Source: a bacterium
GTDB taxonomy: Bacteria > Arandabacterota > Arandabacteria > Arandabacterales > Arandabacteraceae
DNA: 64,000 bases
Direction of reading: 5' to 3'
Assembly: GCA_029933125.1 (NCBI GenBank)
Contig: JAOZOU010000004.1
Location: forward strand, 200,879 to 264,878
The notes under the pieces were generated by a model that ran no database searches, was not told the DNA's origin, and was given only the letters and a program-made list of their open reading frames with translations. A program made the translations under genes and the position numbers. Shown here in pieces: positions 5,739 to 29,740 of this stretch. Each line of letters opens with the position of its first letter. Position 1 is the stretch's first letter.

Positions 5739-5761
5739 AGACCGTTAGGGAGGGTCGAAGA

Positions 5762-7900
5762 ATGGCAAGGGGAAGGTTGTGTTGCTCCGCAGCACTTATT
5801 GGCATTGTGGTCGTCCTGATTTTTGGGACTCTTTTGGAAGGTGAGACCTCAGCACATAACGAAGATTTCGGATTTCCACAGGTCTATCCTGATCCCTCTG
5901 ACCGTGTAGTGAAGTTCTTAGGCAAGTATCATAATCTCAACAATCTTTTGCTACATGTCTCCAACATGGGTTTCTTTGGTGATTGGAACTCCGATCCGAC
6001 TTCGCCATCGGCTGAATGGCCGGCCGGAAGCGGTATAGAGTATCTCTTTGCTGCAGGGCTTTGGGTTGGTGGAGTCGTCTATGACGAGTTCAACCGACCC
6101 GATACACTGGTAAGTGCTGCGGTTTATCAGCTCGAGTACTATCCCAAACCCGATGCCCGTGACGTGATCTACAAGACTGCTGAGAATGAACCGGGGGGCA
6201 GTAGAATTGGGGATGGTGCCGACGATGACGACGACAATCTGGTTGATGAAGATTGGCTTGACGGCTATGACAATGACGGAGATGGATTCATTGATGAGGA
6301 TTTTGCGGCAATCTCACAGCAGATGTACACGTGTACATTTTATGACACGACCACACTGATGAATGCCAACAGAACCGAGGATTTCCACAAGCCGCTCAAT
6401 TTACGTGTTAGACAGGAAAGTTATGCCTGGGGAGGTGAGGCTGCTAAGGATTTCATAGGCGTCGAATACAAGGTCACAAACATTGGGGACTCGACGATTT
6501 ATCAGGCATATGTGGCTTTCATGGTGGATGCCGACATAGGACCCGTTCGCCAGGTTCCGACCTCTTACACAGATGACATGGCCGCCTTCATTGATACGAC
6601 CGTCAAAAAATTTGAACTTAATCTCGATACTGGCAAGATAGAACCGAATGACTATGATCTAACTATTGGTTACATGTACGACTATCCAGGGGGAGACGAT
6701 GGTGATGTTCCAGGCTATATAGGCGTCATGTTTCTTGGTCACACGGTTGATGAAACAGGTAGGCTTGCGCCTCAGCGCGTTGAGATTCACATGTTCAGAA
6801 GCTGGTCAAGTGGTGAAGAGGATCCTCAGGATGACAAGGAACGCTACCGTTACATGCGGGGTAATTCCGATTTTGAGCAAACGATCGATCCGCCGACCAC
6901 AAAGCCTCAAGATTACCGATTCCTTGTTTCAGCTGGTCCCTTTGCGAGGATTCCGCCAGGAAGCACTCTTGTCTTCCAAGTCGCCTTCGTGTGCGGCCAT
7001 CCTTTTGATGACTTTATCGACAATGCTGCGTATGCTCAGAAGATCTACAATGGACGGGTGATTGACGACATACTATACCACTGGGTCGGGTCCAGTCCGC
7101 CTCCGCCGCCGAATCAGATGGTTATACCTAGTGATGGGAAGGTGATCATTGAATGGGATGACTACTCCGAGAGGGTACCCGATCCTCTTGAAGGGTGCTT
7201 TGACTTTGCTGGCTACCGAATCTGGCGAGCAGATGGGTGGAGGCATGAAAGTGAGGTGCCTACGGAGAATCAGTGGAAGCTTATAGCCCACTATGACCTG
7301 GACGATCTGCCGGCAATCGATACAGGCCTCGAGGGAGTTGGCAAGTATCGCTATATAGATTCCGTGGGTGTCCATAACGGGCTCCCCTATTGGTATGCTG
7401 TCACCGCCTTTGATGATGGTCGGGCATTCAGGTTCGTCGTTGATCCGGAGACAGATAGGATGGATTCGATACCGTTCTATGGGAGCTATGCCCAGGCACA
7501 GAAACTCGTATACCCAAGAGCTGAACCTGCTAGAAGAATGGGAAAAGTCCGAATTGTACCCAATCCCTATCCATGGAATCCGAGCAATCCCACGATCCCA
7601 GACGACCTCAGGGAGTCACATCGGGCAATTGGCGACATGGTTGAGTACGAAGGTGATCCCTCAGGGCGAAGGGTGACTTTCGTTGGCCTGCCTCGCAAGT
7701 CGATGGTGAGAGTGTATACCTTGGCTGGCGACCTTGTCTGGAGCAAGTATTTTGAGGGGCCGAATGATCCGATTACAGGTGCACCACCTCAGTGGAATCT
7801 GGTATCAAGAAACAACCAGGAGATTGTTAGCGGAATCTACATTGTCCATGTAGAATCACCTTACGGGTCTGAAATAACAAAGTTCGTTGTCGTCAGATAG
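5762..7900 (+). CDS. secreted acidic protein with Fn3-like domain and T9SS C-terminal sorting domain (module copy 1 cargo)
   Basis: Has a signal peptide and Asp-rich EF-hand/dockerin-like loops (DGADDDDDNLVDEDWLDGYDNDGDGFIDEDF). A poly-Pro linker (SSPPPPPNQ) is followed by an Fn3-like segment (YRIWRADGW...YWYAVTAFDDG). The C-terminal about 90 aa match the Por_Secre_tail pattern (RIVPNPYPW...VRVYTLAGDLV...GIYIVHVES...KFVVVR). A strong SD precedes the ATG. Confidence 0.7.
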   Translation: MARGRLCCSAALIGIVVVLIFGTLLEGETSAHNEDFGFPQVYPDPSDRVVKFLGKYHNLNNLLLHVSNMGFFGDWNSDPTSPSAEWPAGSGIEYLFAAGLWVGGVVYDEFNRPDTLVSAAVYQLEYYPKPDARDVIYKTAENEPGGSRIGDGADDDDDNLVDEDWLDGYDNDGDGFIDEDFAAISQQMYTCTFYDTTTLMNANRTEDFHKPLNLRVRQESYAWGGEAAKDFIGVEYKVTNIGDSTIYQAYVAFMVDADIGPVRQVPTSYTDDMAAFIDTTVKKFELNLDTGKIEPNDYDLTIGYMYDYPGGDDGDVPGYIGVMFLGHTVDETGRLAPQRVEIHMFRSWSSGEEDPQDDKERYRYMRGNSDFEQTIDPPTTKPQDYRFLVSAGPFARIPPGSTLVFQVAFVCGHPFDDFIDNAAYAQKIYNGRVIDDILYHWVGSSPPPPPNQMVIPSDGKVIIEWDDYSERVPDPLEGCFDFAGYRIWRADGWRHESEVPTENQWKLIAHYDLDDLPAIDTGLEGVGKYRYIDSVGVHNGLPYWYAVTAFDDGRAFRFVVDPETDRMDSIPFYGSYAQAQKLVYPRAEPARRMGKVRIVPNPYPWNPSNPTIPDDLRESHRAIGDMVEYEGDPSGRRVTFVGLPRKSMVRVYTLAGDLVWSKYFEGPNDPITGAPPQWNLVSRNNQEIVSGIYIVHVESPYGSEITKFVVVR

Positions 7901-7926
7901 GATAATTGAGGAAGGAGGATTTCGAG

Positions 7927-8904
7927 TTGAAAACTAAGATTGGATTAGCGCTTGCATTGATCCTGCTTGTTTCAAGCCTTGTCTGGTCGGCTGAGATCTT
8001 TGAGAAGGTTGGTACGGTTGGTGCCCAATTTCTCAAGATTGGGGTTGGTGCTCGTGGCGTTGGAATGGGTGAGGCATTTGTTGCCATGGATGGCGATGCC
8101 ACGTGCACGTACTGGAATCCAGCTGGCATAGCAAATATTGAAGGAAGTCAGTTTTCTCTGAGCCATGCTTCATGGCCTGCGGAGATGAGTCATGAGTTCG
8201 CTGCCTATGTTTTCTCCTACAAGTTTATACCAGGAGTGCTCGGGCTGAGTGCGGTGGTTCTCCAGATGGATCCAATGCCTGAGACGACAGAATATCGTCA
8301 GCAAGGCACTGGTTATTCCTTCGATGCCGGTAGTATGGCCTTTGGTCTGACGTATGCAAGGATGCTAACTGACCGTTTCTCTTTTGGTGCAACTTTGAAG
8401 TGGATACACGAAGGGTTGGCGGACTTCAGTGGCGAGACTTTTGCAGTTGATCTTGGGAGCATCTACAACACAGGCTTCAGGGACATAAAAATCGGCATGG
8501 CATTCGTAAACATGGGATCAGGCTATACTTTCTTCGAGGGAGGCAAGGAAAGTCCGATGCCTGTGATGTTTAAGGTAGGTGGATCAATGCCTCTGTTGAA
8601 CACCAGTGACCATAGGTTGATTGGGGCCGTGGAATTCAATCATCCACCGGATGGTGCCGAGCGGGTGAATGCTGGTGCTGAATACGTATTCCAGCGTTTT
8701 GGGCCTAACTTTGAAATAGCCTTGAGAGGTGGCTATCGCTTCAACCGTGATGAAGAGGGTATTACAGCAGGTTTTGGCATAAAGTTCCCATTTGTCAGAA
8801 TTGGCCTTGTCAACAAGCCCTCGATATGGAGAGTTGACTATTGCTATTCTGACATGGGCTTGCTCGAGAGCTCCCATAAGATCTCTCTGAGCGCTTCGTA
8901 TTAA
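7927..8904 (+). CDS. PorV/PorQ-family (FadL-like) outer-membrane beta-barrel protein, dedicated paralog (module copy 1)
   Basis: Signal peptide followed by the family-typical motif GTVGAQFLKIGVGARGVGMGEAFVAMDGDATCTYWNPAGIA. Length is about 330 aa and the protein ends in an aromatic-rich beta-barrel terminus (LSASY). Start re-called at TTG 7927, which has the SD GAGGAAGGAGGA 7 nt upstream. The ORF-track start at 7906 lies inside that SD. Confidence 0.6.
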   Translation: MKTKIGLALALILLVSSLVWSAEIFEKVGTVGAQFLKIGVGARGVGMGEAFVAMDGDATCTYWNPAGIANIEGSQFSLSHASWPAEMSHEFAAYVFSYKFIPGVLGLSAVVLQMDPMPETTEYRQQGTGYSFDAGSMAFGLTYARMLTDRFSFGATLKWIHEGLADFSGETFAVDLGSIYNTGFRDIKIGMAFVNMGSGYTFFEGGKESPMPVMFKVGGSMPLLNTSDHRLIGAVEFNHPPDGAERVNAGAEYVFQRFGPNFEIALRGGYRFNRDEEGITAGFGIKFPFVRIGLVNKPSIWRVDYCYSDMGLLESSHKISLSASY

Positions 8905-8905
8905 A

Positions 8906-10474
8906 ATGCGGTACTCGAGGCAAACTCAAGGGGTAGCAAGTGGTTTGCTACCCCTGATTGCTATTCCTCTCTTCCTGCCGTTGTCCGCCCTGTATGCCCA
9001 GACATGGGCTGAGTATGGTGACGTGCCAGTAAGCAGTAGCGGTGATCTCACCTTCTATGCCGATATTGCTAGCTACTATGATGGGGCAGAGAATCTCGAA
9101 GAAATCTACTTTCTGATAGCGAATGATCAGGTAAAATTTCTCGAAGATGCACATGGATACAAAGGGAGGCTCAGACTTTCAGTTGACCTACTCAATGACG
9201 ACGGTAGTGTTGCTGGAAAGGCTGAAAATGAAGTCACGGTTTATGCTTCGAGCTCGGAGGAAGCTCTCGACCGCAGCGTAGTCCAGGTTCTTCAAACACA
9301 GATTCATGTTCCGCCCGGTCGTTACGTTGCGAAGATGGAGATTGAAGATCTCAATGCTGTGAAAAAAGCCCTTATTCCATACATTCTTAAGCGACATAAG
9401 AAGGGTAGGGTTGAAGTCCTGATAGACTCACCCGATTTCAAAGCCAAGGGAATCGCACTAAGCGACATAGAGTTTGCAAGGGGACTTCGTAGGACTAGCA
9501 AGGGGCAGTTCCAGAAATCGGGATTAGAGATCATTCCAAACCCTCCTCGGCGCTATGGGCTCTTGCTTCCAGAGCTCGCCATCTACTTCGAGGTTTATGA
9601 TTTTGATCAGGAGGTTTCCGATTCGGTCACCGCAACCTACAGGATAGTGAATAGGACAGGTGCAGAGATATATAAGCAGCAGAAGCTTTTGCGGGTAAGA
9701 GGAGAGCGCACACCGAGTACCGCTCTGTTTGATATTACATCCTTGAGTGCGGGTAGCTATCTTCTCGTTGTCAGCCTTGATCTTGCAGGGAGAAGCGTCA
9801 GCAGTCAGCGGAAGTTTGACGTGGCCTGGTCACCGCTGTCCTGGGGAAGGTACGAAACTGAGATGATAGGAGACGTGGAATACATCCTCACAGAGAAAGA
9901 GATGGAGGAGTTTGAATCACTCTCCCCTGGGGGGAGGGAAAGATATCTCGAGGAGTTCTGGCGCAGGCTTGACCCCACACCTGGTACTGCTGAGAATGAG
10001 GCGAGAACGGAGCATTATCGAAGAGTCGTCTATGCCGACAAACACTTTGGGACGAGCACCAAGCGTGGAGCCCTCTCCGATAGAGGGAGGCTCTACATTA
10101 AGTACGGTCCACCCGATGATATCCAGAGTTTCTATTCTGACATGGATTTTGTTAAAGGCAGACGCCACATCGAAGGTGCTGAGTCGCCAGTACCGACCGA
10201 TCCCTTCACTCGCGTGGGAATAAAGGCTGGTTCGGGTGAGCCTGGTGGATGGCAACAGGCCGGCTCATCTGCAGATGTCCATGGAGATCAAATTGGTGGC
10301 ATGACAGTTCATGGCAAAGCGTATGAGATATGGACATATGAAGGCGCTGGCAAGCCGATTCGGCGTCTTTCAAAGCGGATTGCTAAGAGTCCTGTGATGC
10401 AATTTATCCTGGTTGATGAGAAAGGAATAGGCGATTACAGGCTTGTCTATAGCACCGAGCAACAGGAATACTAA
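8906..10474 (+). CDS. GWxTD-domain protein, secreted (copy 1)
   Basis: Signal peptide plus a C-terminal region (EEFWRRLDPTPGTAENEARTEHYRRVVYADKHFG...RGRLYIKYGPPDDIQ) that matches the GWxTD-domain pattern. Paralogous to 18630-19886, which carries the exact GWRTD motif. Starts 2 nt after the PorV-like stop. Confidence 0.55.
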   Translation: MRYSRQTQGVASGLLPLIAIPLFLPLSALYAQTWAEYGDVPVSSSGDLTFYADIASYYDGAENLEEIYFLIANDQVKFLEDAHGYKGRLRLSVDLLNDDGSVAGKAENEVTVYASSSEEALDRSVVQVLQTQIHVPPGRYVAKMEIEDLNAVKKALIPYILKRHKKGRVEVLIDSPDFKAKGIALSDIEFARGLRRTSKGQFQKSGLEIIPNPPRRYGLLLPELAIYFEVYDFDQEVSDSVTATYRIVNRTGAEIYKQQKLLRVRGERTPSTALFDITSLSAGSYLLVVSLDLAGRSVSSQRKFDVAWSPLSWGRYETEMIGDVEYILTEKEMEEFESLSPGGRERYLEEFWRRLDPTPGTAENEARTEHYRRVVYADKHFGTSTKRGALSDRGRLYIKYGPPDDIQSFYSDMDFVKGRRHIEGAESPVPTDPFTRVGIKAGSGEPGGWQQAGSSADVHGDQIGGMTVHGKAYEIWTYEGAGKPIRRLSKRIAKSPVMQFILVDEKGIGDYRLVYSTEQQEY

Positions 10475-10510: not shown

Positions 10511-10615
10511 TTATGCGATCAATCACATGGTCGTTTGATCGGGTGCTTACCGATCGACGGCCTATTAATGTGGTTAGGACAGACTAGGGATAACTTCCAC
10601 AAGGAGAAGGGTAGA

Positions 10616-11449
10616 ATGAATCGCATGAGGCTCTGGCTCTTTTTGCTCACAGTTGCTGCAGGTCTTGTTTTTGCTTTGGCTTGTCATGCTCAGGAGCAGG
10701 CTACAACCGAGCAGGCAGCCACTGATACCTCCATTGCGGCGATGTTGAAATCCCTCGAGGCACCCCCAGAAGAAGCTCAAGCTGCTGAAGAGGGATTCGT
10801 AGCCAGGATACGCAAGAGCGGACTGGTGACCCTTTTCTTAAAAGGTGGAATCTTCATGTATTTCCTCTTGGGCACATCCATTGTTGGTGTGGCTGTTATC
10901 ATAGAGCGTGCGATTACACTGAGTCGCGCTAGGACTGACGTGCGGAAGCTGATGAAGCGAGTGCTTGATGCCCTTCATTCAAAGGGAGTTGAGGCAGCTG
11001 CCCACGAGTGTGAGAGAACCCGGGGACCGATTGCGGCGATCCTTCATGCTGGTCTTAAGCGTGCAGAGCGAGGAACGGAGGCTGTTGAGCGAGCAATTGA
11101 GACTGCCGGTACGATTGAAACCTCTTTCCTCGAACGGGGTCTTATCTGGTTGGCAACAGTTGCAACGATTGCCCCACTCTTAGGCTTCCTCGGAACAGTT
11201 TCAGGAATGATTCGAGCCTTCAACGCGATTGCTGAGGCTGAACAGGTCAATGCCAAGCTTGTTGCATCGGGTATCTCAGAGGCTCTTATCACAACCGCTA
11301 CTGGGCTTTTGATAGCTATTCCTGTTCAAGCATTTCATAATTTCTTTGTTTCTCAGATAGATCGTTTTATAATAGAGATGGAGGAGTCAACAGCAGATCT
11401 AATAGATACGCTGATCATGCTTGGCGCTGTAAAGGAAACCCAAGACTAA
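10616..11449 (+). CDS. exbB: MotA/TolQ/ExbB proton-channel protein with N-terminal periplasmic extension
   Basis: Signal peptide and periplasmic extension, then MotA_ExbB TM helices (GGIFMYFLLGTSIVGVAVIIERAITL...LATVATIAPLLGFLGTVSGMIRAF). Start moved from ORF-track 10535 (TTG) to ATG 10616, which has SD AAGGAGAAGG upstream. Confidence 0.8.
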   Translation: MNRMRLWLFLLTVAAGLVFALACHAQEQATTEQAATDTSIAAMLKSLEAPPEEAQAAEEGFVARIRKSGLVTLFLKGGIFMYFLLGTSIVGVAVIIERAITLSRARTDVRKLMKRVLDALHSKGVEAAAHECERTRGPIAAILHAGLKRAERGTEAVERAIETAGTIETSFLERGLIWLATVATIAPLLGFLGTVSGMIRAFNAIAEAEQVNAKLVASGISEALITTATGLLIAIPVQAFHNFFVSQIDRFIIEMEESTADLIDTLIMLGAVKETQD

Positions 11450-11463
11450 AGGGGTGAGCGACA

Positions 11464-11871
11464 GTGAAATTCGGACGAAGAGCCAAGGTTTCGGATGAGA
11501 TACCAAATGCATCGCTCTCCGATATAGCATTCTTACTCCTCATATTCTTCATGGTGAGCACAGTCTTTGCAATTGAGGAAGGGCTTCTGCTTCAGCTGCC
11601 AAGCAAAGAAGGTGTTGTTAAGAAGATTGCTCGTAAGAACATAATGCGCATCTCGATTTATGCTGATGGCAACATAACCGTTGATGATCAGCCAGTTACC
11701 TTGGATCAGATAAGGCAAAAAGTTGAGCAAGCTCAGGTGGAGAATCCTAAGATCGTCTTTGTTGTTGAGACTTCACCCGAAGCCAGATATGGTCAGATGG
11801 TGGATGTTCTCGATGAACTTAAATTAGCTAAAGCTACAAGGGTTTCACTAAAGCGGCTTGAGGAAAAGTGA
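11464..11871 (+). CDS. exbD: biopolymer transport protein ExbD/TolR
   Basis: 135 aa with an N-terminal TM segment (DIAFLLLIFFMVSTVF) and the ExbD periplasmic fold pattern. Confidence 0.8.
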   Translation: MKFGRRAKVSDEIPNASLSDIAFLLLIFFMVSTVFAIEEGLLLQLPSKEGVVKKIARKNIMRISIYADGNITVDDQPVTLDQIRQKVEQAQVENPKIVFVVETSPEARYGQMVDVLDELKLAKATRVSLKRLEEK

Positions 11872-11880
11872 AGGTAGGCT

Positions 11881-12300
11881 ATGGCTAGGTTTCAGAAGAA
11901 GATCCGTGCCGAGAGTAAGATTCCGACCTCTTCAATGGCGGATATCGCCTTCTTGCTCCTTATCTTCTTTATGGTTACAACAGTTCTTAAGCTTGAGGAA
12001 GGACTCCCCATAGCATTGCCGAAAGCGGAGGCAGCTGAGGATATTCCCCGAGAGAACGTGATTCACATATGGGTTGACCGCACGGGCAAGATCTCGATAA
12101 ATGACATGATAGTCAAGACCGGTGCTGTTGAGGGGATCGTTTCTCAGAGATTGAGGTCAAATCCTGGAATAATAGTTGCCTTCTACACGGATGAAAATGC
12201 CCCCTATGGAGTAATGGATGACATAATGGAGCAGCTTAAGAGGGCAAGTGCGGTCAGGGTATCCTTTGCATCCAAGAAGGAGAAGCTTCGCTTAAGATAG
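11881..12300 (+). CDS. exbD: biopolymer transport protein ExbD/TolR (second copy)
   Basis: 139 aa, paralog of the preceding gene (MADIAFLLLIFFMVTTVL...). Confidence 0.8.
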   Translation: MARFQKKIRAESKIPTSSMADIAFLLLIFFMVTTVLKLEEGLPIALPKAEAAEDIPRENVIHIWVDRTGKISINDMIVKTGAVEGIVSQRLRSNPGIIVAFYTDENAPYGVMDDIMEQLKRASAVRVSFASKKEKLRLR

Positions 12301-12307
12301 GAGATGA

Positions 12308-12925
12308 GTGTCAGTGACAGCTTATGCTGAACTCAAAGCGAAATATCCCAAGTATCTTGAAATTGGATTCCTGCTTGCGATTGTGATCCATGCAGTTGCT
12401 TTCGCTTTCTGGCCGGAGTATGTGCCTTCGGTCTATAAGCTCAGGGAGGAGAAATTTGAAGTTGTCGATATTCCACCCGAGATAGAGATACCCCCACCAC
12501 CTGAGGAGATAGCCAGACCAGAGGTCGCTGTCGAGATCGAGGCAAGTGATGAGGCAAGTGAGGAGGAGACCATTGCGCCGACGATGTTCGACGCCGAGAA
12601 TCTACCACCTGCTCCTCCACCTCCACCACCTGAACCTGAGATGTTTTTTGCGTTCGATACCTATCCGCAGGTGATTCATGCAGCTAAGCCTAAGTATCCT
12701 GAACTGGCTCGCAAGGCCGAGGTCGAAGGTACTGTTGTGGTGATGGTTACTATTGATGAAACCGGCAAGGTCATAAATGCGTGGATTGCCCAGTCCGATG
12801 CCCCGATCCTCAATGATGCTGCTATTGAAGCAGCCTATAAGTTCAAGTTTACGCCCGCTAAGCAGCGCGATGTGCCTGTGAAGGCAACCATTAGTATTCC
12901 ATTTAGATTTTCGCTTACCGAGTAG
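12308..12925 (+). CDS. tonB: energy transducer TonB
   Basis: N-terminal TM anchor, a Pro/Glu-rich spacer (PPEIEIPPPPEE...PPAPPPPPPEPE), and a C-terminal TonB domain (AKPKYPELARKAEVEGTVVVMVTIDETGKV...). Confidence 0.75.
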   Translation: MSVTAYAELKAKYPKYLEIGFLLAIVIHAVAFAFWPEYVPSVYKLREEKFEVVDIPPEIEIPPPPEEIARPEVAVEIEASDEASEEETIAPTMFDAENLPPAPPPPPPEPEMFFAFDTYPQVIHAAKPKYPELARKAEVEGTVVVMVTIDETGKVINAWIAQSDAPILNDAAIEAAYKFKFTPAKQRDVPVKATISIPFRFSLTE

Positions 12926-13697: not shown

Positions 13698-13711
13698 GAA
13701 GGGGGAAGGGC

Positions 13712-17432: not shown

Positions 17433-18637
17433 AATGGGTCGGTGAAACGGTAAGGGTTGCAATATCTTCGCTACTTGCGAACAGACTTAGAACACTCCTT
17501 ACGGTTATTGGAGTGATAATCGGTATTGGAACGATAATTGCCATGTTGGCTCTCATTAACGGTATCAATAGATCTGTCCTGACCGAGTTTGAAAGACTTG
17601 GACCAAATGTGATCTTTATAACACTAGAAGAACCAGGATTGCGTGTAGGTTTTTCTGCGGTCAGGAGGAAACGCATAACCTATCGCGAGGTTGAGCAGTT
17701 AAGGCGGAGATGTGATTCTATTGATAAGATGTCGATCATTTCCCAGCAGCGGTCGGTCGTCAGCTATCGTGGAAGAGACAATGTTGTGACCCTTCTGGGC
17801 GTGCAGGCTGATTATGATGAAGTTGCAGCCCTGAGGCTTGCTGAAGGGAGATTCTTCAATGAGGTTGAGGAAAAGGGGTTGAGAAGGTGTGTCTTGGGTG
17901 CTGAGGTTGCCAAGAATTTCTTTGGAAAGGCATCACCACTTGGTAAATTCGTCGAAATAGGGGGACAGCGCTTCAGGATAATTGGAGTCCTGCAAGAGTC
18001 TGGTGTGGTTATGGGAACCAGGTACGATGATGCTGTCTTCATTCCCTATCCCTGGACTAGGGCGATGTTTGGAGAGCGCAGGGATAACTACGTTATGTTG
18101 CTTCCTAATCATGACGTCAATCCCGATGATGCTGTTGAGCATATAAGACTCACACTGCGTTCGATAAGGAAAATACCGCGTGGCTCTGATGACACATTTG
18201 CGATTTCTACTCAGCAGGGAATGCTCGAGACATATAACAAGTTGACAGGTTCAATATACTGGGTTATGAGAATAGTGGCATCAATTGCTCTTCTGGTTAG
18301 TGGTATAGGTATAATGAACATTATGCTGGTCAGTGTGATGGAGAGAACTCGTGAGATAGGTCTGCGTAAGGCTATAGGTGCGAATCGTGCTACTATCGCA
18401 GTCCAATTCCTCATTGAGGCTGTGATTTTGACGAGTATAGGTGGAATTGCTGGAATAGGTTTCGGCTACCTGGTTCGCCTGCTCGTTGGCACTTTGACAC
18501 CCCTACCTGCGAGTGTTCCTCTCTGGGCAATACCGTTTGCTCTCGGGATTTGCTGTGGTATTGGCATCTTTTTTGGACTCTATCCTGCGTTGAGGGCTTC
18601 CGCCCTTGATCCAGTCAAGGCTTTGAGATATGAATGA
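17429..18637 (+). CDS. ABC transporter permease, FtsX/MacB-like (paralog)
   Basis: 402 aa, same architecture (ALLVSGIGIMNIMLVSVMERTREIGLRKAIGA). Confidence 0.75.
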   Translation: MKWVGETVRVAISSLLANRLRTLLTVIGVIIGIGTIIAMLALINGINRSVLTEFERLGPNVIFITLEEPGLRVGFSAVRRKRITYREVEQLRRRCDSIDKMSIISQQRSVVSYRGRDNVVTLLGVQADYDEVAALRLAEGRFFNEVEEKGLRRCVLGAEVAKNFFGKASPLGKFVEIGGQRFRIIGVLQESGVVMGTRYDDAVFIPYPWTRAMFGERRDNYVMLLPNHDVNPDDAVEHIRLTLRSIRKIPRGSDDTFAISTQQGMLETYNKLTGSIYWVMRIVASIALLVSGIGIMNIMLVSVMERTREIGLRKAIGANRATIAVQFLIEAVILTSIGGIAGIGFGYLVRLLVGTLTPLPASVPLWAIPFALGICCGIGIFFGLYPALRASALDPVKALRYE

Positions 18638-19886
18638 CAAACTCTACAGGGTGCCTGTCTTTTTGATAGCGATCTTTCTATGCTCAACGAGTCTTGCTCA
18701 GATAACCTACCTGCCTGCATGCTCATCGCTAACCCCCTTCTTTTGTGTAGATGCGGCATACTTTGTGGAAGATGGTAACTGTGTGGTTGAGACCTTCTTT
18801 GAGATCTGTAACGAAGGTCTGCAGTTCGTCAAAACCGATGGAGGCTTCAAGGGGCAGGTGGATGTCTCTGTTGTCATCATGGATGATAAGGATCGTCAGG
18901 TGGCTGGCGATACATATCGCCTTAGATTGTATGCTTCCAAGTATGACGAGACAACATCGGTGGATTCCTGTCGAACCAAGGTATTGAGACTTAAGGTGAG
19001 GCCTGGGAAGTTTAGGCTGATCGTTAAAGCGTATGATAACGACTCGAGGGCTAAAAGCGTTATCGAGGGACTCTTGACAGTGCCTGACATGGACAGCCTT
19101 CCTACCCTGAGTGATCTCGTCCTTTTGAAGCCAAGTGAACATCCTGGTGGAAAACGTTGGGGCAATTATGTTCCCGCGGTTAGGAGGAAACTCAATGTAA
19201 GCGAGGAAAAAACTGCTCTCTATTATGAGGTGTATTGTCATGACTACGGGGATTCGCTTACCCTGAGGCAGACAATATCAGATAAGAATGGCAAAGCGCT
19301 TGTCAGGCATGAAAAGCATATCTTCGGAGCGGGCAAGGTCGTCGAGCTTTCAGATCTGGGGGTGGATTCGCTCTCCAACGGACATTATGAGCTCGAAGTG
19401 GTCTTGGCAAGAAGCGATGGCTCAGTTGTGTGTAAGCGGCAAAAGGAATTCGAAGTTTTCTCAGAAGCCTTCTACTTCGACAGGGATGTTGAGGGTGCGG
19501 TCGCACTTTTAACATATATAGCGAGCGGCAGCTTCATAGACGCCTTTGAGAAGGCAGATGCTGAGGAACGTAAGCGGCTCTGGGAGGAGTTCTGGCGGGA
19601 AAAAGATCCCACTCCGCAGACTCCTAAAAACGAATTCTATGAGGAGCACGTGCGCAGATTTAGTTACGCGAATCAGCACTTTGCCACTTCGATGACCGAG
19701 GGTTGGAGGACAGATCGTGGTAGAATCTACATAATCTATGGTGAGCCCGATGAAATCGAAAAGTATCCAGGCGAAGTTAGACGTAAGCCGATGGAGGTTT
19801 GGTACTATTACAGTCGCGGCAAGCGGTTCATTTTCGTAGATGAGACCGGTTTTGGTGACTATGTCCTCGTTGGTCAATATCGCTAA
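18630..19886 (+). CDS. GWxTD-domain protein, secreted (copy 2)
   Basis: Signal peptide. C-terminal EEFWREKDPTPQTPKNEFYEEHVRRFSYANQHF...GWRTDRGRIYIIYGEPDEIE carries the literal GWxTD motif. Overlaps the preceding permease stop by 8 nt. Confidence 0.6.
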   Translation: MNDKLYRVPVFLIAIFLCSTSLAQITYLPACSSLTPFFCVDAAYFVEDGNCVVETFFEICNEGLQFVKTDGGFKGQVDVSVVIMDDKDRQVAGDTYRLRLYASKYDETTSVDSCRTKVLRLKVRPGKFRLIVKAYDNDSRAKSVIEGLLTVPDMDSLPTLSDLVLLKPSEHPGGKRWGNYVPAVRRKLNVSEEKTALYYEVYCHDYGDSLTLRQTISDKNGKALVRHEKHIFGAGKVVELSDLGVDSLSNGHYELEVVLARSDGSVVCKRQKEFEVFSEAFYFDRDVEGAVALLTYIASGSFIDAFEKADAEERKRLWEEFWREKDPTPQTPKNEFYEEHVRRFSYANQHFATSMTEGWRTDRGRIYIIYGEPDEIEKYPGEVRRKPMEVWYYYSRGKRFIFVDETGFGDYVLVGQYR

Positions 19887-21689: not shown

Positions 21690-22699
21690 GAATTGAGGGA
21701 AAGATATATGACTTGGTTCTTGAAGTTCCCTTTGCCATCGCAAGGAATACCACATCCAGGCATTCGATCTGCATCGCTGAAATTCAATTTGAAGGCTTTG
21801 TTGGCTATGGAGAGGCTTCTCCATCAGGCTACTACGGCGATAGTACTGAGAAGGCAATGCTTGCTATCAATGGAGCAGGTAAGCTTCTTGAGGATCCATT
21901 TGCCATGGAGAAGATAAGCCGTGCCTTATTAGAGAATTTCCCGGATAGTCCGTCTGGGAGAGCTGCAATAGAGATTGCCCTTTATGATCTCCTTGGTAAG
22001 GTTACCAATCAACCCGTGTACAGGCTTTTGGGACTGGCAGGTATGGATCCGCCCATGACGTCGTATACTGTTGGCGTAGAAGATGTGGCTATAGCGGAGC
22101 GGCGTCTGGAGGTCCTGCGGCAGTACCCAATTCTCAAGGTGAAGCTGGGTTTTGGAGATGAGCTGCGCCTGCTTGAGCTTTTAAGCAGCGAGACCAATGC
22201 AAGGTTGAGGGCCGATGCCAACGAGGGCTGGCAACTCGATGAAGCGATAGAGAAAATAAACTCCTATGGCGAACGCTTTAATATCGAGTTCTTCGAACAG
22301 CCCTTACCCAAGAACCAAAGGGAGAACTATCGAAAGCTCAAGCGTGAAACCCGCGCAACGATAATTGTTGACGAAAGCGTCGTGACACCAAGCGATATTC
22401 TCGAGTGGGCAGATATAGTTGATGGAATCAACATAAAGCTCATGAAATGTGGAGGTATAGCACAGGCACTCAAGATGATATGGACAGCAAAATCAGCAGG
22501 TCTCAAGGTCATGCTTGGTTGTATGATTGAAAGTTCTGTGGGCATAACAGCGGCGGCTCATTTAGCTCCTCTTGTAGAGTATTGCGATCTCGATGGCAAT
22601 CTTCTCATCACAAATGATCCCTTCACAGGCGTCAAAGCTGTTCGAGGCATCCTAGGCCTTCCTACGAGCCCCGGTTTGGGTGTGAAACCAACCATCTAA
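21686..22699 (+). CDS. dipeptide (L-Ala-D/L-Glu) epimerase, enolase superfamily
   Basis: Enolase-superfamily pattern (KVKLGF...KLMKCGGI...MIESSVG). Start set to ATG 21686, which overlaps the DUF1611 stop. Confidence 0.75.
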   Translation: MRIEGKIYDLVLEVPFAIARNTTSRHSICIAEIQFEGFVGYGEASPSGYYGDSTEKAMLAINGAGKLLEDPFAMEKISRALLENFPDSPSGRAAIEIALYDLLGKVTNQPVYRLLGLAGMDPPMTSYTVGVEDVAIAERRLEVLRQYPILKVKLGFGDELRLLELLSSETNARLRADANEGWQLDEAIEKINSYGERFNIEFFEQPLPKNQRENYRKLKRETRATIIVDESVVTPSDILEWADIVDGINIKLMKCGGIAQALKMIWTAKSAGLKVMLGCMIESSVGITAAAHLAPLVEYCDLDGNLLITNDPFTGVKAVRGILGLPTSPGLGVKPTI

Positions 22700-22807: not shown

Positions 22808-25411
22808 ATGCGAAAACTTACTCCTATCTTTATGGTCGTATTGTGGCTCGCTTTCGCCTGTGGTCTCCAAGCGGGAACAACAGGGAAGATCGCAGGTATG
22901 GTAATTGATGCCGAAACCGGTGAGCCCCTCACTGCGGTAAACGTCACTGTCGAAGGTACGCATCTAGGTGGAATCAGCAACCTCGAAGGGCTTTATCACA
23001 TCGTAAATGTTCCACCTGGTACCTATTCAGTCAAGGCTTCAATGATGGGCTATCAGCCTCTTGTGGTTGATGGAGTTGTTGTCAATGCTGATTTCACAAC
23101 AACAGTTGATTTCCAGCTTGACCCCACAGTACTCGAGGTTGTTCCCGAAATTGTGGTTACAGCTGAGAGGCCGATGATAAGAAAAGACATGACTTCATCA
23201 ATCAGCGTGGTTGAGCATGATGAAATATCCATGCTTCCCATTGAGTCGCCCTTCGACATAGTCAGCTTCCAGGCAGGTGCTGCGCTTGATCGCAGGGGTA
23301 TCCATATCCGTGGAGGACGTGAGACTGAGATATCCTATGCCATCAACGGGGCGACAATTCTTGATCCTATTTTCTCGAGAGCTTCTGCGAGCTATGACGA
23401 ATCTGCAATTCAAGAAATGGTCATCCTGAGTGGGGGATTCACTCCAGAGTATGGAAATGCTCAATCAGGTATAGTGAATGTCATCACCAAAGAGGGTGGA
23501 CCGACTTTCAAGGGAGAAGTTGAAAAGCAATTCTATCTTCCTCTTGAGACCCTTTGGCAGGCTGCTGACGATGCGAAGAAGTATGACACGGGTTACAATA
23601 CAACCAAGCTTACCCTCAGCGGTCCAACCCCTTGGACAGATAAGCTGAGGTATTTCATCTCAGGTGAAACTTCCAAGTGGGACGATTGGGATCCCCATGT
23701 CTATGTTCTCCCCAATCAAGGTCGTGATCTCGATCAGGTCATCTGGAAGGTTACAGGCTTCCCTGGCCACAATGTCAAGCTCTTCAGTGAGGGACTTTTC
23801 TACTACACCAAGTTCAGGGTTTGGGATGCTCAGCGCCAGAAGATACCCGAGACCTTCCTTCAGTATAAGAGAAAAACACTTGTCAATCTCGTTGGCATGA
23901 GCCATATGGTAAGCCCGAGTACATATTATGATGTCTCCCTGTCGAGGTTTTCCACTTCCTATCATGTTGCTCAGCCAGGCAAGTGGTATGATATGAGCAA
24001 ATCCCAGGAGTGGAACACCACTCCTGCCGAGGAAGGCGGTGGTGGCTTAGATCTTCAGCCAGAATATGATGAGGACAACTTCATCGTAGCTGGAGATAAT
24101 CCCCTCTTTCATGACTCACAATCCACTGTTTATGGTTTCAGGGCAAGCCTTACAAGCCAGGTGAATGAACACCATCAACTCAAGGTCGGTGGTGAGGTTG
24201 ATCTCTACGACTCACGTCATCAGGAGGTCTATGCTCCAGCAGGTAACATCTACAGGAACGACTACAGGGTAACTCCAAGGTACTATGTTGGCTATCTACA
24301 GGATAAGATTGAGTACAGCGGGCTCATTGTAAACACAGGTCTTAGGCTGGATGTTTTTGATCCCAACTTTAAGTATCCTTCGGATCCAATCTATCCCTGG
24401 GATCCTTCAATACAGGTCCCTGGACCCGAGTGTGGAGGTCCGGACAATACCGAGCCTCCTCTTTGGAAGCTTAAAGACGCATCTGTTAAACTTCAGGTTA
24501 GCCCGCGTCTTGGTATTTCTCACCCTGTCTCCGAGAGAACCGTGCTTCACTTCACCTATGGCCACTACTTCCAGGTTCCGGCTTTCCGCTATCTGTACAC
24601 CAATACCAAGTACGACATGGGCGGGCATTGGCCGCTCATAGGTAACCCCAATCTTAAGCCGGAAAGAACCGTTTCCTACGAGGTTGGGCTTGAGCATCTG
24701 ATTGCTGAGGACCTCATGATAGACCTTACAGGTTTCTACAAGGACATTTATGATCTCATCTCAACTGTTGTGATAAATGATAGTCGTGATTCCGATACCC
24801 CACCCGATGCAACCGAGTACACAACCTACCGTAATACAGACTGGGGCAATGCGAGAGGCTTCGAGGTCACACTTCAGAAGAAGTTCAGAGAGGACTGGAT
24901 GGGAAGGCTCATCTATACTTTCATGGTTGCAAAGGGTAGAAGCTCGGATGTTCTCGAGGGCTACAGAAATCGCTTTGAGGGGAATGTACCACCTTCCAAG
25001 GAATATTATCTGGATTGGGATAGAAGGCACAATATAGTTGTCGACCTGGGCTACGGCAGGCGCGACAACTGGTCAGTGAATGTTCTCGTCAAATATGCCT
25101 CAGGTTCACCATATACTCCTGTTGAAAATACCAGGTCCGCTCAACCCGAGCAGAATACCGCAAGATTCCCTTCAACGTCCGTGGTCAATCTCAAGCTCTC
25201 CAAGGATTTCAATCTCTTTAACATGAGGGAGCAGGTTTTCCTGCAGGTTGAAAATCTCTTCAACAAGCGCAACCTTGTTGCCTTCGATGATGACAATACC
25301 GATCTGATGCGTCACCTGAGACTAACCGGTGAATATACCGGACCTTTCAATGATGTAACTGTCTATGGAGCACCGAGAGAGATAAAAGGAGGCATTAGAG
25401 TGCAGTTTTAG
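22808..25411 (+). CDS. TonB-dependent outer-membrane transporter with CarbopepD_reg-like N-domain (module copy 2)
   Basis: Paralog of 3036-5738. Signal peptide, GKIAGMVIDAETGEPL...GTYSVKASMMGY, plug (IHIRGGRETEI...SGIVNVITKEG), and a C-terminus ending in an aromatic residue (GIRVQF). Start moved to ATG 22808, which has SD GGAGGAGAGG upstream. Confidence 0.8.
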   Translation: MRKLTPIFMVVLWLAFACGLQAGTTGKIAGMVIDAETGEPLTAVNVTVEGTHLGGISNLEGLYHIVNVPPGTYSVKASMMGYQPLVVDGVVVNADFTTTVDFQLDPTVLEVVPEIVVTAERPMIRKDMTSSISVVEHDEISMLPIESPFDIVSFQAGAALDRRGIHIRGGRETEISYAINGATILDPIFSRASASYDESAIQEMVILSGGFTPEYGNAQSGIVNVITKEGGPTFKGEVEKQFYLPLETLWQAADDAKKYDTGYNTTKLTLSGPTPWTDKLRYFISGETSKWDDWDPHVYVLPNQGRDLDQVIWKVTGFPGHNVKLFSEGLFYYTKFRVWDAQRQKIPETFLQYKRKTLVNLVGMSHMVSPSTYYDVSLSRFSTSYHVAQPGKWYDMSKSQEWNTTPAEEGGGGLDLQPEYDEDNFIVAGDNPLFHDSQSTVYGFRASLTSQVNEHHQLKVGGEVDLYDSRHQEVYAPAGNIYRNDYRVTPRYYVGYLQDKIEYSGLIVNTGLRLDVFDPNFKYPSDPIYPWDPSIQVPGPECGGPDNTEPPLWKLKDASVKLQVSPRLGISHPVSERTVLHFTYGHYFQVPAFRYLYTNTKYDMGGHWPLIGNPNLKPERTVSYEVGLEHLIAEDLMIDLTGFYKDIYDLISTVVINDSRDSDTPPDATEYTTYRNTDWGNARGFEVTLQKKFREDWMGRLIYTFMVAKGRSSDVLEGYRNRFEGNVPPSKEYYLDWDRRHNIVVDLGYGRRDNWSVNVLVKYASGSPYTPVENTRSAQPEQNTARFPSTSVVNLKLSKDFNLFNMREQVFLQVENLFNKRNLVAFDDDNTDLMRHLRLTGEYTGPFNDVTVYGAPREIKGGIRVQF

Positions 25412-25426
25412 GACTGGAGGTTGGAA

Positions 25427-27313
25427 ATGAGAGCAATATGTGCCTATTTGATTATTATCTCAGTGCTGAGTGTTTCGACAACTGCCTTAGCCTGGGATGC
25501 GGACGCAGTCTCTAAGTTTGGCCCCCCGACATCGCAAAACCGCGAACGCGCCCTTGCCGCCGCTCCCTGTATTTCAGCTACTTCGAGATACACCATAGGT
25601 GACCTTTGGTTTCCCCAGATCTACACAGTTGGCTTGTGCCTCTACACGGGTTACTATCCTGGGTCATCTAATAACATGCAGATTTTTCAGACGGGCCCAT
25701 GGATGGGGGGCTATGCCGAGGATGGCGGAGGTGAACCCTGGACAGCGATCGGAACATTCGATCAGCTTGACTTCCTCATGTATGACAGCATCTGCAGCGG
25801 ATTCAATGTCTCAGAACCAGGGCAGAGCTCTGTCGATGTGGAAAGCACCTTCGATACTGCCTATTCACCACGCGATCTTGGCGTGGTTGTCACTCTTCGC
25901 TACATGATGTGGGACGATCCGAGGCTTGACGACTGTATCGTCATAAAGGCTGGAATTAAGTTCAGAAAGGCTATTGAGGATTTCTGGTTTGGATGGATGT
26001 CTGACTGTGACATCGGCAACAATGATTTGCCTGACTACTACTACGATGATCTCGTTGGCTATGATGAGACGAGAGGCGTTGCCTACATGTATGACGATGA
26101 CGGTGACCCAGCAATTGCTACAGATGCTAAGAGCAAATTGCTTTCCTCGGCACATGTCGGACAGGTTCTTCTGTCCGCACCGCCTCCCGGTGGAAGCATA
26201 CATGTGCCACCTGCAACCAATGTTTCCTGGGAGACATTTGCATGGTGGGACTGGAATAATGATGTGACAGGTGATGCGGCTGCCTACGAAAGAATGTGCC
26301 GGGGAACGATTAGCCCATATCCGCCCGAGGTACCCTTCGATTACAGGATGATGACCGCTGTTGGTCCTTACGATGTCGAAGCCGGTGATTCAGCAACATT
26401 CTACATCGCACTCGTTTTTGGAGAAGGTCTCGATGCCGAATACTGGGCACGCCGGAGCAAGATAGGTGGCGAGGTTTCCGACATGGGCTCACTGATCGAG
26501 CATGTTGAGAACATCAAAGATTTCTTTGCCTCCGGTCTTGTACTTGCTGATCCGGCGCCTCATCCGCCGATTCTTGAGGATCCACGCCTCAACGGAAGAA
26601 AGGCGACCCTGAGCTGGGAATCGGTTTCTGAAGAGGATGACGACTTCGCAGGCTACAGAGTGTATCGAAGCCTTGTCTCGAATGTTGGGCCTTGGGATCT
26701 TCTCGCTGACTTTGCTGGTAGACCTTTTGTTCACACCTATGAAGATACACTAAGAATTGGATTCCCAACTTTCTACCTTGTCACAGCATATGATTTGGGT
26801 GGAAACGAATCCAATAAGGGCAGTGCTGTAACAAAGACCCTCGGAGGAATCTATGCTACCACTGTGCCTTCAGACTATGAGGGTGACTGTGAAAGTCTTT
26901 GCGAGGATCAGTGCCAGGATTGTCAGGAATGCTATGATCAATGCCTTGAGAAATGTATGCAGGCAAAGCGAGCAGCAGCCCTTGACAAAATCCTGGTAGC
27001 ACCTAACCCCTACAGAGGAAGCGCAGATTGGGAAAGGCTTGATTACGAGGGGCGTATTGCGTTCTACAATCTCCCCAGGCGTTGCACAATTTATATCTAC
27101 ACGATAACTGGTGAACTCGTTGACGTCGTATATCACAACATGCCTGGTGATGATACACCCGATCCTGAGGAAAGTGAAACAGGTGGTGAAAGGTGGGACA
27201 TGATTACCTCAAATGGGCAATCGATTGCCAGTGGCATATACATCTATCGAGTTACAAGTCCAGAATATGGTGAGAAAATCGGTAAGTTTGCGGTCATAAG
27301 AGGTGAACGCTAA
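25427..27313 (+). CDS. secreted acidic protein with Fn3-like domain, Cys-rich segment and T9SS C-terminal sorting domain (module copy 2 cargo)
   Basis: Signal peptide and shared motifs with 5762-7900 (DCDIG/DADIG, YMYDDDGD/YMYDYPGGDDGD). Fn3-like segment (GYRVYRS...FYLVTAYDLGGNES), Cys cluster CESLCEDQCQDCQECYDQCLEKC, and CTD (LVAPNPYRG...TIYIYTITGELV...GIYIYRVTS...KFAVIRGER). Confidence 0.7.
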   Translation: MRAICAYLIIISVLSVSTTALAWDADAVSKFGPPTSQNRERALAAAPCISATSRYTIGDLWFPQIYTVGLCLYTGYYPGSSNNMQIFQTGPWMGGYAEDGGGEPWTAIGTFDQLDFLMYDSICSGFNVSEPGQSSVDVESTFDTAYSPRDLGVVVTLRYMMWDDPRLDDCIVIKAGIKFRKAIEDFWFGWMSDCDIGNNDLPDYYYDDLVGYDETRGVAYMYDDDGDPAIATDAKSKLLSSAHVGQVLLSAPPPGGSIHVPPATNVSWETFAWWDWNNDVTGDAAAYERMCRGTISPYPPEVPFDYRMMTAVGPYDVEAGDSATFYIALVFGEGLDAEYWARRSKIGGEVSDMGSLIEHVENIKDFFASGLVLADPAPHPPILEDPRLNGRKATLSWESVSEEDDDFAGYRVYRSLVSNVGPWDLLADFAGRPFVHTYEDTLRIGFPTFYLVTAYDLGGNESNKGSAVTKTLGGIYATTVPSDYEGDCESLCEDQCQDCQECYDQCLEKCMQAKRAAALDKILVAPNPYRGSADWERLDYEGRIAFYNLPRRCTIYIYTITGELVDVVYHNMPGDDTPDPEESETGGERWDMITSNGQSIASGIYIYRVTSPEYGEKIGKFAVIRGER

Positions 27314-27334
27314 TCTCGGTTAGGAGGTTGGATC

Positions 27335-28318
27335 ATGAGACTTAAGCTTGTTCTGGGCGCAGTCCTGATTTTGATTTTGGCGACATGCGTCTTCGGGATG
27401 CAGAACAAGGTTGGCACAGCCGGCGCGCTCTTTCTCAAGATTGGCATGGATGTCAGAGCGGCTGCAATGGGAGAGGCAAGTGGAGCACTTGTTGGAGACG
27501 CCTCGTGTGCATTTGGTAATCCCGCTGGCCTTGCAGGTATTGCCACTAAACAGATATTCATCACCGACACCGAATGGATTGCTGATATAAGGCTTCTTGG
27601 GGGAGCTTATGCCTTTCCTTTTGGCCTCTCAAGTGTGATTGCTTTGAGCGGCGTTTGTGTTGACTACGGTTCGATGCCTATGGTTAGAGAGGCTGAGGCT
27701 GACGCTGTGGTTGAGACCTTCAATCCCAAAGATATTGCTGTCGGGATCTCCTATGCCAGAAGATGGACAAATCGCCTTCTTGTCGGAGGTTCGGCCAAAT
27801 ACATCGATCAGGCTATAGCTGATTATCACTCCCGGGGCATTGCCTTTGACTTCGGCACCATCTACTACACTGGTTTCAGAACGTTAAGACTTGCCATGTC
27901 CACAAGCAACTTTGGACCTGATATGAAGTTTGATGGGACCTACATTGACAAGTATTACATCGGGACAGCATATGTGGAAACGCAGAAGGAATTCGGTACC
28001 TACGATCTTCCGCTAAACTTCAGGATTGCCCTTGCATACGATTTCGATATATCGTCTGGCTCAAAAGTCACAGTTGCTCTTGACGCAACTCATCCTAACG
28101 ACTATTCGGAAAGATTGCACTTTGGGGCTGAATATTCCTGGGATGGAACATTCTTCCTGAGAAGTGGATACACTGTCAATGCTGAGGAGATGGGCTTCTC
28201 CGCCGGCTGTGGTGCGAAGATTTCCACATCCATGGGCGCTGCAAGCTTCGATTACGCCTACACTGATTTCGGAGTCTTCGATGGTGTCCATCACTTTGCT
28301 TTAGGGATTTGCTTCTAA
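27335..28318 (+). CDS. PorV/PorQ-family outer-membrane beta-barrel protein, dedicated paralog (module copy 2)
   Basis: Signal peptide plus GTAGALFLKIGMDVRAAAMGEASGALVGDASCAFGNPAGLAGI. About 327 aa with a C-terminal aromatic residue (LGICF). SD TAGGAGG upstream. Confidence 0.6.
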   Translation: MRLKLVLGAVLILILATCVFGMQNKVGTAGALFLKIGMDVRAAAMGEASGALVGDASCAFGNPAGLAGIATKQIFITDTEWIADIRLLGGAYAFPFGLSSVIALSGVCVDYGSMPMVREAEADAVVETFNPKDIAVGISYARRWTNRLLVGGSAKYIDQAIADYHSRGIAFDFGTIYYTGFRTLRLAMSTSNFGPDMKFDGTYIDKYYIGTAYVETQKEFGTYDLPLNFRIALAYDFDISSGSKVTVALDATHPNDYSERLHFGAEYSWDGTFFLRSGYTVNAEEMGFSAGCGAKISTSMGAASFDYAYTDFGVFDGVHHFALGICF

Positions 28319-29735: not shown

Positions 29736-29740
29736 GTACC

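Follow-up and report, generated by a model that had tools for sequence, protein, structure and literature searches.

Two divergent copies of a three-gene module encoding a TonB-dependent transporter, an uncharacterised secreted protein and a PorV/PorQ-family barrel: a putative SusD-less uptake system of FCB-group bacteria

We analyzed a 64-kb stretch of DNA (64,000 nucleotides of contig JAOZOU010000004.1, assembly GCA_029933125.1, from a bacterium of the Arandabacterota), which is called the window here, and found in it two copies of a module of three genes. The co-ordinates given below are positions in this window. Each module encodes a TonB-dependent transporter (TBDT), a secreted protein of an uncharacterised family, which we call X, and an outer-membrane barrel of the PorV/PorQ family, which we call PV. 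Copy 2, the subject of this report, lies at 22808-28318, and copy 1 lies at 3036-8904. The triad TBDT-X-PV is conserved as a unit across the Fibrobacteres-Chlorobi-Bacteroidetes (FCB) group. Our observations concern the gene content of the module, the paralogy of its copies, the folds of the domains, the resemblance of the C-terminal domain (CTD) of X to those of PorZ and PorU, the conservation of the triad, and the neighbouring genes in other phyla, which are rich in carbohydrate-active enzymes (CAZymes).

By analogy with known systems, we propose, with a probability of about one half, that X is exported and held at the cell surface by its cognate barrel, where it supplies the TBDT with a glycan-containing substrate, so that the triad would be a counterpart of SusC/SusD that has no SusD. 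The mechanism can be considered as follows. X2, the X protein of copy 2, would pass the inner membrane by the Sec pathway via its signal peptide, and would cross the outer membrane via a CTD of the kind used by a type IX secretion system (T9SS). This CTD would stay uncleaved and dock on the barrel PV2, in the manner of PorZ on PorQ and of PorU on PorV, which would tether X2 to the surface. The supersandwich domain of X2, held out by a stalk made of an FN3 domain and a Cys hairpin, would bind the glycan-containing substrate and hand it to the TBDT. The TBDT would import it, energised by the ExbB-ExbD-ExbD-TonB set that is encoded after copy 1. That is, the module would be the functional counterpart of SusC/SusD plus surface glycan-binding proteins, and its copies would serve different ligands. 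From the evidence described below we infer that X is exported by T9SS, that its CTD is retained, that it binds to PV and co-operates with the TBDT, and what kind of ligand it has.

Organization and paralogy of the two copies

An open reading frame (ORF) scan showed that copy 2 consists of three co-directional ORFs on the + strand, at 22787/22808-25411, 25421/25427-27313 and 27335-28318. The genes of both copies are as follows (aa, amino acids).

22808..25411, + strand: TBDT2, 867 aa; signal peptide, CarboxypepD_reg domain, TonB-box-like PEIVVTAERP, plug and barrel (Pfam/NCBIfam)
25427..27313, + strand: X2, 628-aa secreted protein of an uncharacterised family
27335..28318, + strand: PV2, 327-aa outer-membrane barrel of the PorV/PorQ family (NF033709)
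3036..5738, + strand: TBDT1, paralogue of TBDT2
5762..7900, + strand: X1, 712-aa paralogue of X2, with three domains in common and without the Cys cluster
7906..8904, + strand: PV1, barrel of the PorV/PorQ family, paralogue of PV2

The start of TBDT2 was placed at ATG 22808, ahead of which lies the ribosome-binding site GGAGGAGAGG, and the resulting length agrees with the source gene call. The likely start of X2 is ATG 25427, located behind GGAGG, in preference to TTG 25421, and the source gene call also gives 628 aa. A preliminary description of this DNA had reported gaps of 9 and 21 nucleotides within copy 2. The gap of 21 nucleotides before PV2 was correct, but the first gap is 15 nucleotides and not 9, because X2 starts at ATG 25427.

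The same description held that copy 2 keeps the gene order of copy 1, and this was borne out, all three genes being paralogous pairwise. By BLASTP, TBDT1 and TBDT2 were 32% identical across their whole length (E 9e-117), X1 and X2 25% identical across ~520 aa (E 2e-21), and PV1 and PV2 32% identical (E 2e-52). No third copy of the module was present in the window.

It had further been claimed that the N-terminal domain (N-domain) of the cargo is divergent in copy 2, and that the copies are paralogous beyond generic domains such as the plug and the CTD. We found 23% identity between X1 and X2 in the N-domain, 32% in the FN3 domain and 36% in the CTD. A profile made only from N-domains of the X2 group gave the N-domain of X1 a score of 49.6 bits (E 1.8e-17), compared with a maximum of 7.1 bits in 500 shuffles. 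As judged by these comparisons, no folded domain of X diverges more than the N-domain, yet the N-domains of the two copies are homologous, and both claims stood.

For all three genes of copy 2, the nearest neighbours were genes of loci L001 and L003-L005 from the survey described in the next section, followed by loci of Calditrichota and Marinimicrobia, and not copy 1. Since modules of other phyla are closer to copy 2 than copy 1 is, the two copies are ancient paralogues, which fits separate roles. A recent duplication of the module was ruled out on the same ground.

The triad in other genomes

In order to see the distribution of the module, one genome per GTDB species was scanned, 364 X relatives were confirmed, and 79 loci were fetched. 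With the proteins of the window as tblastn queries, a TBDT gene and a PV gene were found beside X in most of the fetched loci, and a complete triad within 8.5 kb was found in 58 of the 79. When the two copies of the window were added to these 58 loci, the order in the resulting 60 triads was TBDT-X-PV in 52, TBDT-PV-X in 7 and PV-TBDT-X in 1. These frequencies are descriptive, because the loci were picked via X.

The triad loci came from about ten phyla of the FCB group and belonged to Eisenbacteria, Calditrichota, Marinimicrobia, WOR-3, KSB1, Stahlbacteria, Latescibacterota, Ignavibacteriota, Rhodothermales and other Bacteroidota. Among the fetched loci, the triad was restricted to lineages of the FCB group, except for a few bins that are probably mislabelled. 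The X ORFs of these loci (n=89) were matched by the FN3 profile and by the CTD profile in 89/89 cases each, and by the N-domain profile in 83/89. The similarity matrices of TBDT, X and PV were correlated with one another (Spearman 0.54-0.71).

The X family is large, with 2181 members at E<=1e-30 among 1.84 billion representatives. About 110 of the best 150 matches to the X profile were full-length, single-stretch proteins of 600-790 aa, and the others were mostly giant multi-FN3 proteins or partial ones. The profile also draws giants of 1500-6000 aa with 9-42 FN3-like repeats; as such proteins match through FN3 only, counts of the family at loose thresholds are inflated.

Two other arrangements of X genes were seen in the survey. 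Tandem arrays of two or three X genes (~720 aa) occurred in L021, L022, L036, L045, L064 and L070, and they sit after TBDT-PV (TBDT-PV-X-X-X) wherever the contig shows it. A lone X1-like gene with 43% identity was located at 10001-12163 of L080, in a 4.7-Mb genome which also holds a full cluster of the copy-1 type (L081).

Neither the triad, nor a PorQ-like barrel partnering a TBDT, nor GWxTD proteins (see below) were found described in the literature; the coverage was incomplete, and an earlier description is possible.

Domains and predicted folds of the X proteins

The Pfam search gave no family matching X2. By reading of its sequence, X2 begins with the signal peptide MRAICAYLIIISVLSVSTTALA, and the following parts were then distinguished.

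25574..26542, + strand: N-domain of X2, aa 50-372; galactose-mutarotase-like beta-supersandwich with conserved Y-x-Y-D-D-D-G-D
26552..26836, + strand: FN3 domain of X2, aa 376-470; motif DFAGYRVYR ... VTAYD
26882..26956, + strand: seven-Cys cluster of X2, C-x3-C-x3-C-x2-C-x2-C-x3-C-x3-C, between FN3 and CTD
26978..27310, + strand: C-terminal beta-sandwich of X2, aa 518-628; long and T9SS-CTD-like; PNPY ... G ... GIYIYRV ... KFAVIR

AlphaFold2 models of X1 (pLDDT 73.6) and X2 (pLDDT 71.3) gave one fold for the two N-domains, and the structural match to a supersandwich extended across the whole domain. The proteins matched by this fold include GH174 fucanases and polysaccharide lyases. The modelled fold is of a carbohydrate-associated type and, taken together with the contexts of the triad in other phyla, it suggests a ligand that contains glycan.

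An extra Cys cluster had been noticed in the cargo of copy 2. It is indeed there, formed by the cysteines at residues 488, 492, 496, 499, 502, 506 and 510, and X1 has none of it. The cluster is confined to the orthologue group of X2 and is invariant in that group, and the model shows it in a helical hairpin. From its symmetry about C499, it may form three inter-helix disulfides.

X1 has a feature of its own. At aa 154-180 (window 6221-6301), the acidic stretch DDDGDG..DED.LDG.DNDGDG.IDEDF is invariant across 30 proteins of the X1 group. It resembles two calcium-binding DxDxDG loops, is absent from X2, and lies where the confidence of the model is low.

The CTD of X and the question of its cleavage

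The CTD profile (alignment A2) was compared with the sequences of PDB, and only two convincing relatives were obtained, the CTD of PorZ (E 1.4e-4) and that of PorU (E 4e-3). Foldseek also retrieves PorU for the CTD of X, and NCBIfam gave sub-threshold matches to the C-termini of PorZ and PorU. The CTD of X has a length of ~100-110 aa and ends in KFAVIR, the corresponding end of PorZ being RFAVIR. In PorZ and PorU, the CTDs are uncleaved and bind PorQ and PorV, and their lengths are 96 and 108 aa, compared with 67-88 aa for cleaved CTDs (PMC11285876; PMC10202324).

With the models of the type A sorting domain (TIGR04183/PF18962), X1 scored 17.3 bits against a cutoff of 23, and X2 gave no match. 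PF18962 (Por_Secre_tail) and CHU_C each matched weakly in 3 of 12 CTDs of the family. An X1 orthologue of 64% identity is named by NCBI as 'T9SS type A sorting domain-containing protein'. The label of T9SS cargo, which X had been given earlier, depends on matches of X1 and X2 to T9SS models that are all sub-threshold. The genome paper of Caldithrix abyssi contains no mention of T9SS.

A tail of this kind and a barrel of the PorV/PorQ family would also be expected if X were an ordinary cleaved T9SS cargo, that is, a depolymerase or an epimerase-like enzyme that is secreted or attached to lipopolysaccharide (LPS), with PV as its dedicated PorV-type shuttle and the TBDT taking up the products. 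Catalysis by a supersandwich alone is possible, aldose 1-epimerases being an example, and the fold matches to GH174 fucanases and polysaccharide lyases, the conserved acidic Y-x-Y-D-D-D-G-D and the invariant double DxDxDG of the X1 group agree with an enzyme. However, the CTD of X is long and is nearest to the two CTDs that are not cleaved. In addition, no (alpha/alpha)6 domain or other known catalytic domain was found in X, in which the N-domain is followed by FN3 and the C-terminal beta-sandwich. A barrel gene that accompanies X one to one also suits anchoring better, because a general PorV serves many cargoes (PMC10202324). We therefore regard a cleaved enzyme as unlikely, and we prefer an X protein that is retained at the surface by its barrel.

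The PorV/PorQ-family barrels and the possible involvement of T9SS

Both barrels pass the model of the PorV/PorQ family (NF033709, cutoff 90), with 190.2 bits for PV1 and 191.3 bits for PV2, and the PorV model of Pfam (cutoff 27), with 35.5 and 36.2 bits, respectively. Neither of them reached the PorV equivalog NF033710 (PV1 78.8, PV2 65.8 bits; cutoff 250), the PorQ equivalog NF033711 (PV1 90, PV2 106.4 bits; cutoff 220) or the PorV2 model (PV1 78, PV2 54 bits; cutoff 325). The sole sequence relative of PV2 in PDB was PorV of F. johnsoniae, and the match was weak. PV1 weakly matches UPF0164 and the FadL-type family Toluene_X.

These weak matches of PV1, and the position of X and PV below every T9SS equivalog threshold, would also fit a module that works independently of T9SS. 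PV would then be a FadL-like channel or a partner of the TBDT, X would be a periplasmic or barrel-associated accessory, and the CTD would merely have an Ig-like fold; the fact that a T9SS core gene was not found in the window agrees with this. In contrast, the sole specific sequence relatives of the CTD of X are T9SS CTDs. Moreover, the triad was found in FCB lineages only (bar the few bins mentioned above), in which T9SS is reported or suspected (PMC11285876), and canonical Por_Secre_tail proteins, with scores above the threshold, adjoin the triad in loci of Caldithrix, Ignavibacteriales and Bacteroidota. A module without T9SS thus seems quite improbable to us, compared with export of X by that system.

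The transporters, the neighbours in distant phyla and the ligand

We classified as TBDTs those proteins in which a TonB box precedes a Plug domain and which have a TonB_dep_Rec barrel of 22 strands. The barrel model PF00593 (cutoff 27) gave 117.6 bits for TBDT2 and 95.9 bits for TBDT1. With the Plug model (cutoff 23.9), TBDT1 reached 33.8 bits, and TBDT2, at 21.3 bits, stayed slightly below the cutoff. From their domain composition, TBDT1 and TBDT2 are both assigned to the TonB-dependent transporters. Both fail the SusC/RagA model TIGR04056, scoring 60 and 24 bits where the cutoff is 368, and the X genes adjoining the TBDTs had no match to the SusD family or to any other family in the Pfam search. 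Compared with the sequences of solved structures, TBDT2 gave weak matches only.

The neighbouring genes were scanned at 8 distant triad loci. Genes of GH29, GH51-type and GH116 glycoside hydrolases, sulfatase and lectin-like proteins were found within ~7 kb in three of them (L044, L054, L074), and genes of peptidase, esterase and canonical CTD proteins near three further ones (L009, L051, L058). The neighbours of the triad were a GH29 fucosidase and two lectin-like proteins in Melioribacter, GH116 and a sulfatase in Rhodothermales, and two GH51-type arabinofuranosidases in KSB1; other distant triads had an M64 peptidase and an esterase. The modules had previously been likened to polysaccharide utilisation loci (PULs). 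This likeness gains indirect support from the supersandwich fold and from the CAZyme-type neighbours in other phyla. In the window, no CAZyme gene lies beside either copy.

It should also be considered whether the pair of X and PV might be a lineage-specific analogue of PorZ-PorQ, acting in T9SS attachment or glycolipid delivery, or an element of a surface layer or of adhesion, so that the adjacency of the TBDT would have no meaning for transport. The CTD of X is nearest to that of PorZ, PV2 scores higher with the PorQ model than with the PorV model (106 vs 66 bits), and a sugar-binding fold could hold the glycan of LPS. Such a role is hard to reconcile with the several divergent copies per genome and the tandem X arrays, with the near-constant linkage to the TBDT in a fixed order, with the variation of the flanking catabolic genes, and with the TonB-ExbBD set linked to the triad of the copy-1 type. 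We consider it very improbable, and an uptake function explains the triad better.

Points that lower our confidence in surface-tethered uptake by the triad should be stated together. X1 and X2 score below the curated thresholds of TIGR04183 and PF18962, and the matches to PorZ and PorU are weak (E 1e-4 and 4e-3). The 64-kb window, which was the part of the genome covered, contains no T9SS core gene, and the remainder of it is housekeeping. The supersandwich fold is shared with proteins that do not bind sugars, such as the P1 domain of YidC, and the models of X1 and X2 are only moderately confident (pLDDT 74 and 71). That TBDT, X and PV diverge in a correlated way could merely follow from the phylogeny of the species, and some X genes are solitary, having neither a TBDT gene nor a PV gene beside them, as in L080. 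Finally, no CAZyme gene accompanies the copies in the window, and copy 2 follows genes for peptidoglycan peptides and D-glutamate.

Neighbouring genes and the hairpin after copy 2

The other features near the two copies are as follows.

8906..10474, + strand: GWxTD protein 1, fixed directly after the PV gene in loci of the copy-1 type (L081, L082)
10535..12925, + strand: ExbB (10535-11449), ExbD (11464-11871), ExbD (11881-12300) and TonB (12308-12925)
18630..19886, + strand: GWxTD protein 2, 2.9 kb upstream of copy 2; position kept in L001 and L003-L005
28322..28350, + strand: hairpin with GC-rich stem directly 3' of PV2

Copy 1 is followed by the genes of GWxTD, ExbB, ExbD, ExbD, TonB, Yip1, a TolC-like protein, HlyD and two MacB/FtsX permeases. 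This order recurs up to TolC in L081 and L082, in which X is 44-46% identical, and the TonB-ExbBD set stands after a triad of the copy-1 type in three genomes. The ExbB-ExbD-ExbD-TonB set is likely to be the energy supply of the TBDTs. Between the modules, at 13011-18637, lie the genes of Yip1, the TolC-like outer-membrane efflux protein (OEP), HlyD and the two MacB/FtsX permeases. An ABC ATPase gene was not seen among them, and L081 and L082 have one after the OEP gene. Directly upstream of the TBDT of the copy-1 type, at 1-6761 of L081 and 5257-7043 of L082, there are genes of an Opp-type ABC importer (SBP_bac_5, permeases, and ATPases with oligo_HPY), which is a possible inner-membrane partner.

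The two GWxTD proteins share 27% identity (E ~1e-37). As had been stated, no GWxTD gene follows copy 2, but the paralogue at 18630-19886 lies upstream of it. GWxTD was ruled out as part of the module core, since, apart from one other locus, it was found beside the triad in the Eisenbacteria-like lineage only.

Upstream of TBDT2, at 19840-22699, three overlapping genes encode an NlpC/P60-SH3_16 endopeptidase, a DgcN-like protein and a DgcA-like protein. The DgcN-like protein (DUF1611) scored 234 bits and did not reach the cutoff of 480. The DgcA-like protein, an enolase-superfamily racemase, scored 199 bits with the DgcA model, which is above the score with its L-Ala-D/L-Glu epimerase model. 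This set looks like one for the catabolism of peptidoglycan peptides and D-glutamate. A link of copy 2 with peptidoglycan-peptide catabolism was rejected as a general feature, since the gene position is kept in L001-L005 and not in distant loci. In L082, an NlpC/P60 gene also stands after the cluster of the copy-1 type. Peptidoglycan debris as a ligand is a lead for this lineage only.

The hairpin after PV2 has a 12-bp stem with two G.U pairs, the loop ACA, a folding free energy of -25.6 kcal/mol and a z value of -3.2. The sequence behind it is AAATTCTCTC, and there is no U-tract. The consensus terminator scan misses the hairpin for this reason, and a canonical intrinsic terminator was ruled out. 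The GC-rich hairpin reported at this place is present, and it is a putative terminator that was not called by the scan. A strong GC hairpin, though a different one, also stands directly after the PV gene in L001 and L004, which are orthologous loci.

Behind the hairpin, at 28427-31123, genes of an HdrC-like (Fer4) protein, an HdrB-like (CCG) protein and dihydrolipoyl dehydrogenase are located, likewise in L001, L003 and L004. Further on, at 31820-32332 on the - strand, there is an ORF of 170 aa with a partial match to CarboxypepD_reg (31.9 bits, slightly below the cutoff); it is the sole minus-strand ORF of such size in a long plus-strand run.

Possible significance of the triad

SusC/SusD accounts for the capture and import of polymers in Bacteroidia. 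Other FCB phyla are abundant in sediments, soils and the ocean, and the triad offers a testable answer for them, namely a TBDT partner that is tethered by a barrel and not by a lipid anchor. We put forward tentatively, as less than an even chance, that TBDT-X-PV is an undescribed uptake complex found throughout the FCB group, in which a T9SS-exported binding protein sits on its own barrel, and that it is the transport core of PUL-like loci in phyla lacking SusD, namely Eisenbacteria, Calditrichota, Marinimicrobia, Latescibacterota, KSB1, Ignavibacteriota and Rhodothermales. PorV/PorQ-like barrels and T9SS CTDs that are retained would then have a role not only in the secretion machinery but also in the uptake of nutrients. 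A name and a fold would be given to a large protein family that is absent from Pfam, and a three-gene signature would become available for the annotation of substrate-uptake loci in uncultured lineages. Since there are cultured carriers among the lineages with the triad, such as Melioribacter roseus, Ignavibacterium album, Caldithrix abyssi and Rhodothermus marinus, genetics, proteomics and cryo-EM are feasible.

Comparison with known systems

The triad combines features of two known kinds of system, uptake systems made of a TBDT and its partner, and the anchoring of a CTD protein by a barrel. As in SusC/SusD and RagA/RagB, the TonB box and plug of the TBDT are preceded by an N-terminal domain of the CarboxypepD_reg type, the gene that follows is that of a partner presumably exposed at the surface, and several divergent paralogous sets occur per genome. 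Neighbouring genes of glycoside hydrolases, sulfatases and peptidases are also shared, in the case of the triad in other phyla. Unlike SusC/SusD, the triad has no SusD-like lipoprotein, and its TBDTs fail the SusC/RagA model. X instead combines a Sec type I signal peptide and a mutarotase-like supersandwich with FN3 and a T9SS-like CTD, and the triad adds a third gene, that of the PorV/PorQ-like barrel.

In PorZ-PorQ and PorU-PorV, which belong to the T9SS attachment complex of Porphyromonas gingivalis, a FadL-like barrel of the PorV/PorQ family holds a surface protein with a long CTD. The PorZ CTD and the PorU CTD are the two which the CTD profile of X retrieved from PDB, and the ending KFAVIR of X is similar to RFAVIR of PorZ. 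The proteins of the triad are, however, not orthologous to these, since they stay below the cutoffs of all the equivalog models. The N-terminal domains are unrelated, PorZ having beta-propellers and PorU being a peptidase. Moreover, the X and PV genes are adjacent to each other, stand next to a TBDT gene, and occur in multiple copies.

SprB-SprF and PG1035-PorP, which concern cargo with a type B CTD, share with the triad the clustering of the cargo gene with its own PorV-like barrel gene, and the PorP/SprF barrel has been proposed to anchor uncleaved type B cargo at the surface (PMC10202324). In contrast, the CTD of X resembles the type A kind of PorZ and PorU, the barrel belongs to the PorV/PorQ family and not to PorP/SprF, and a TBDT is part of the unit. 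In BamG-BamH of the Bacteroides BAM, the extracellular loops of a FadL-type barrel hold a surface-exposed protein (PMC12578637). This pair, which we compared by description only, is a part of the BAM machinery and includes neither a TBDT nor a CTD protein.

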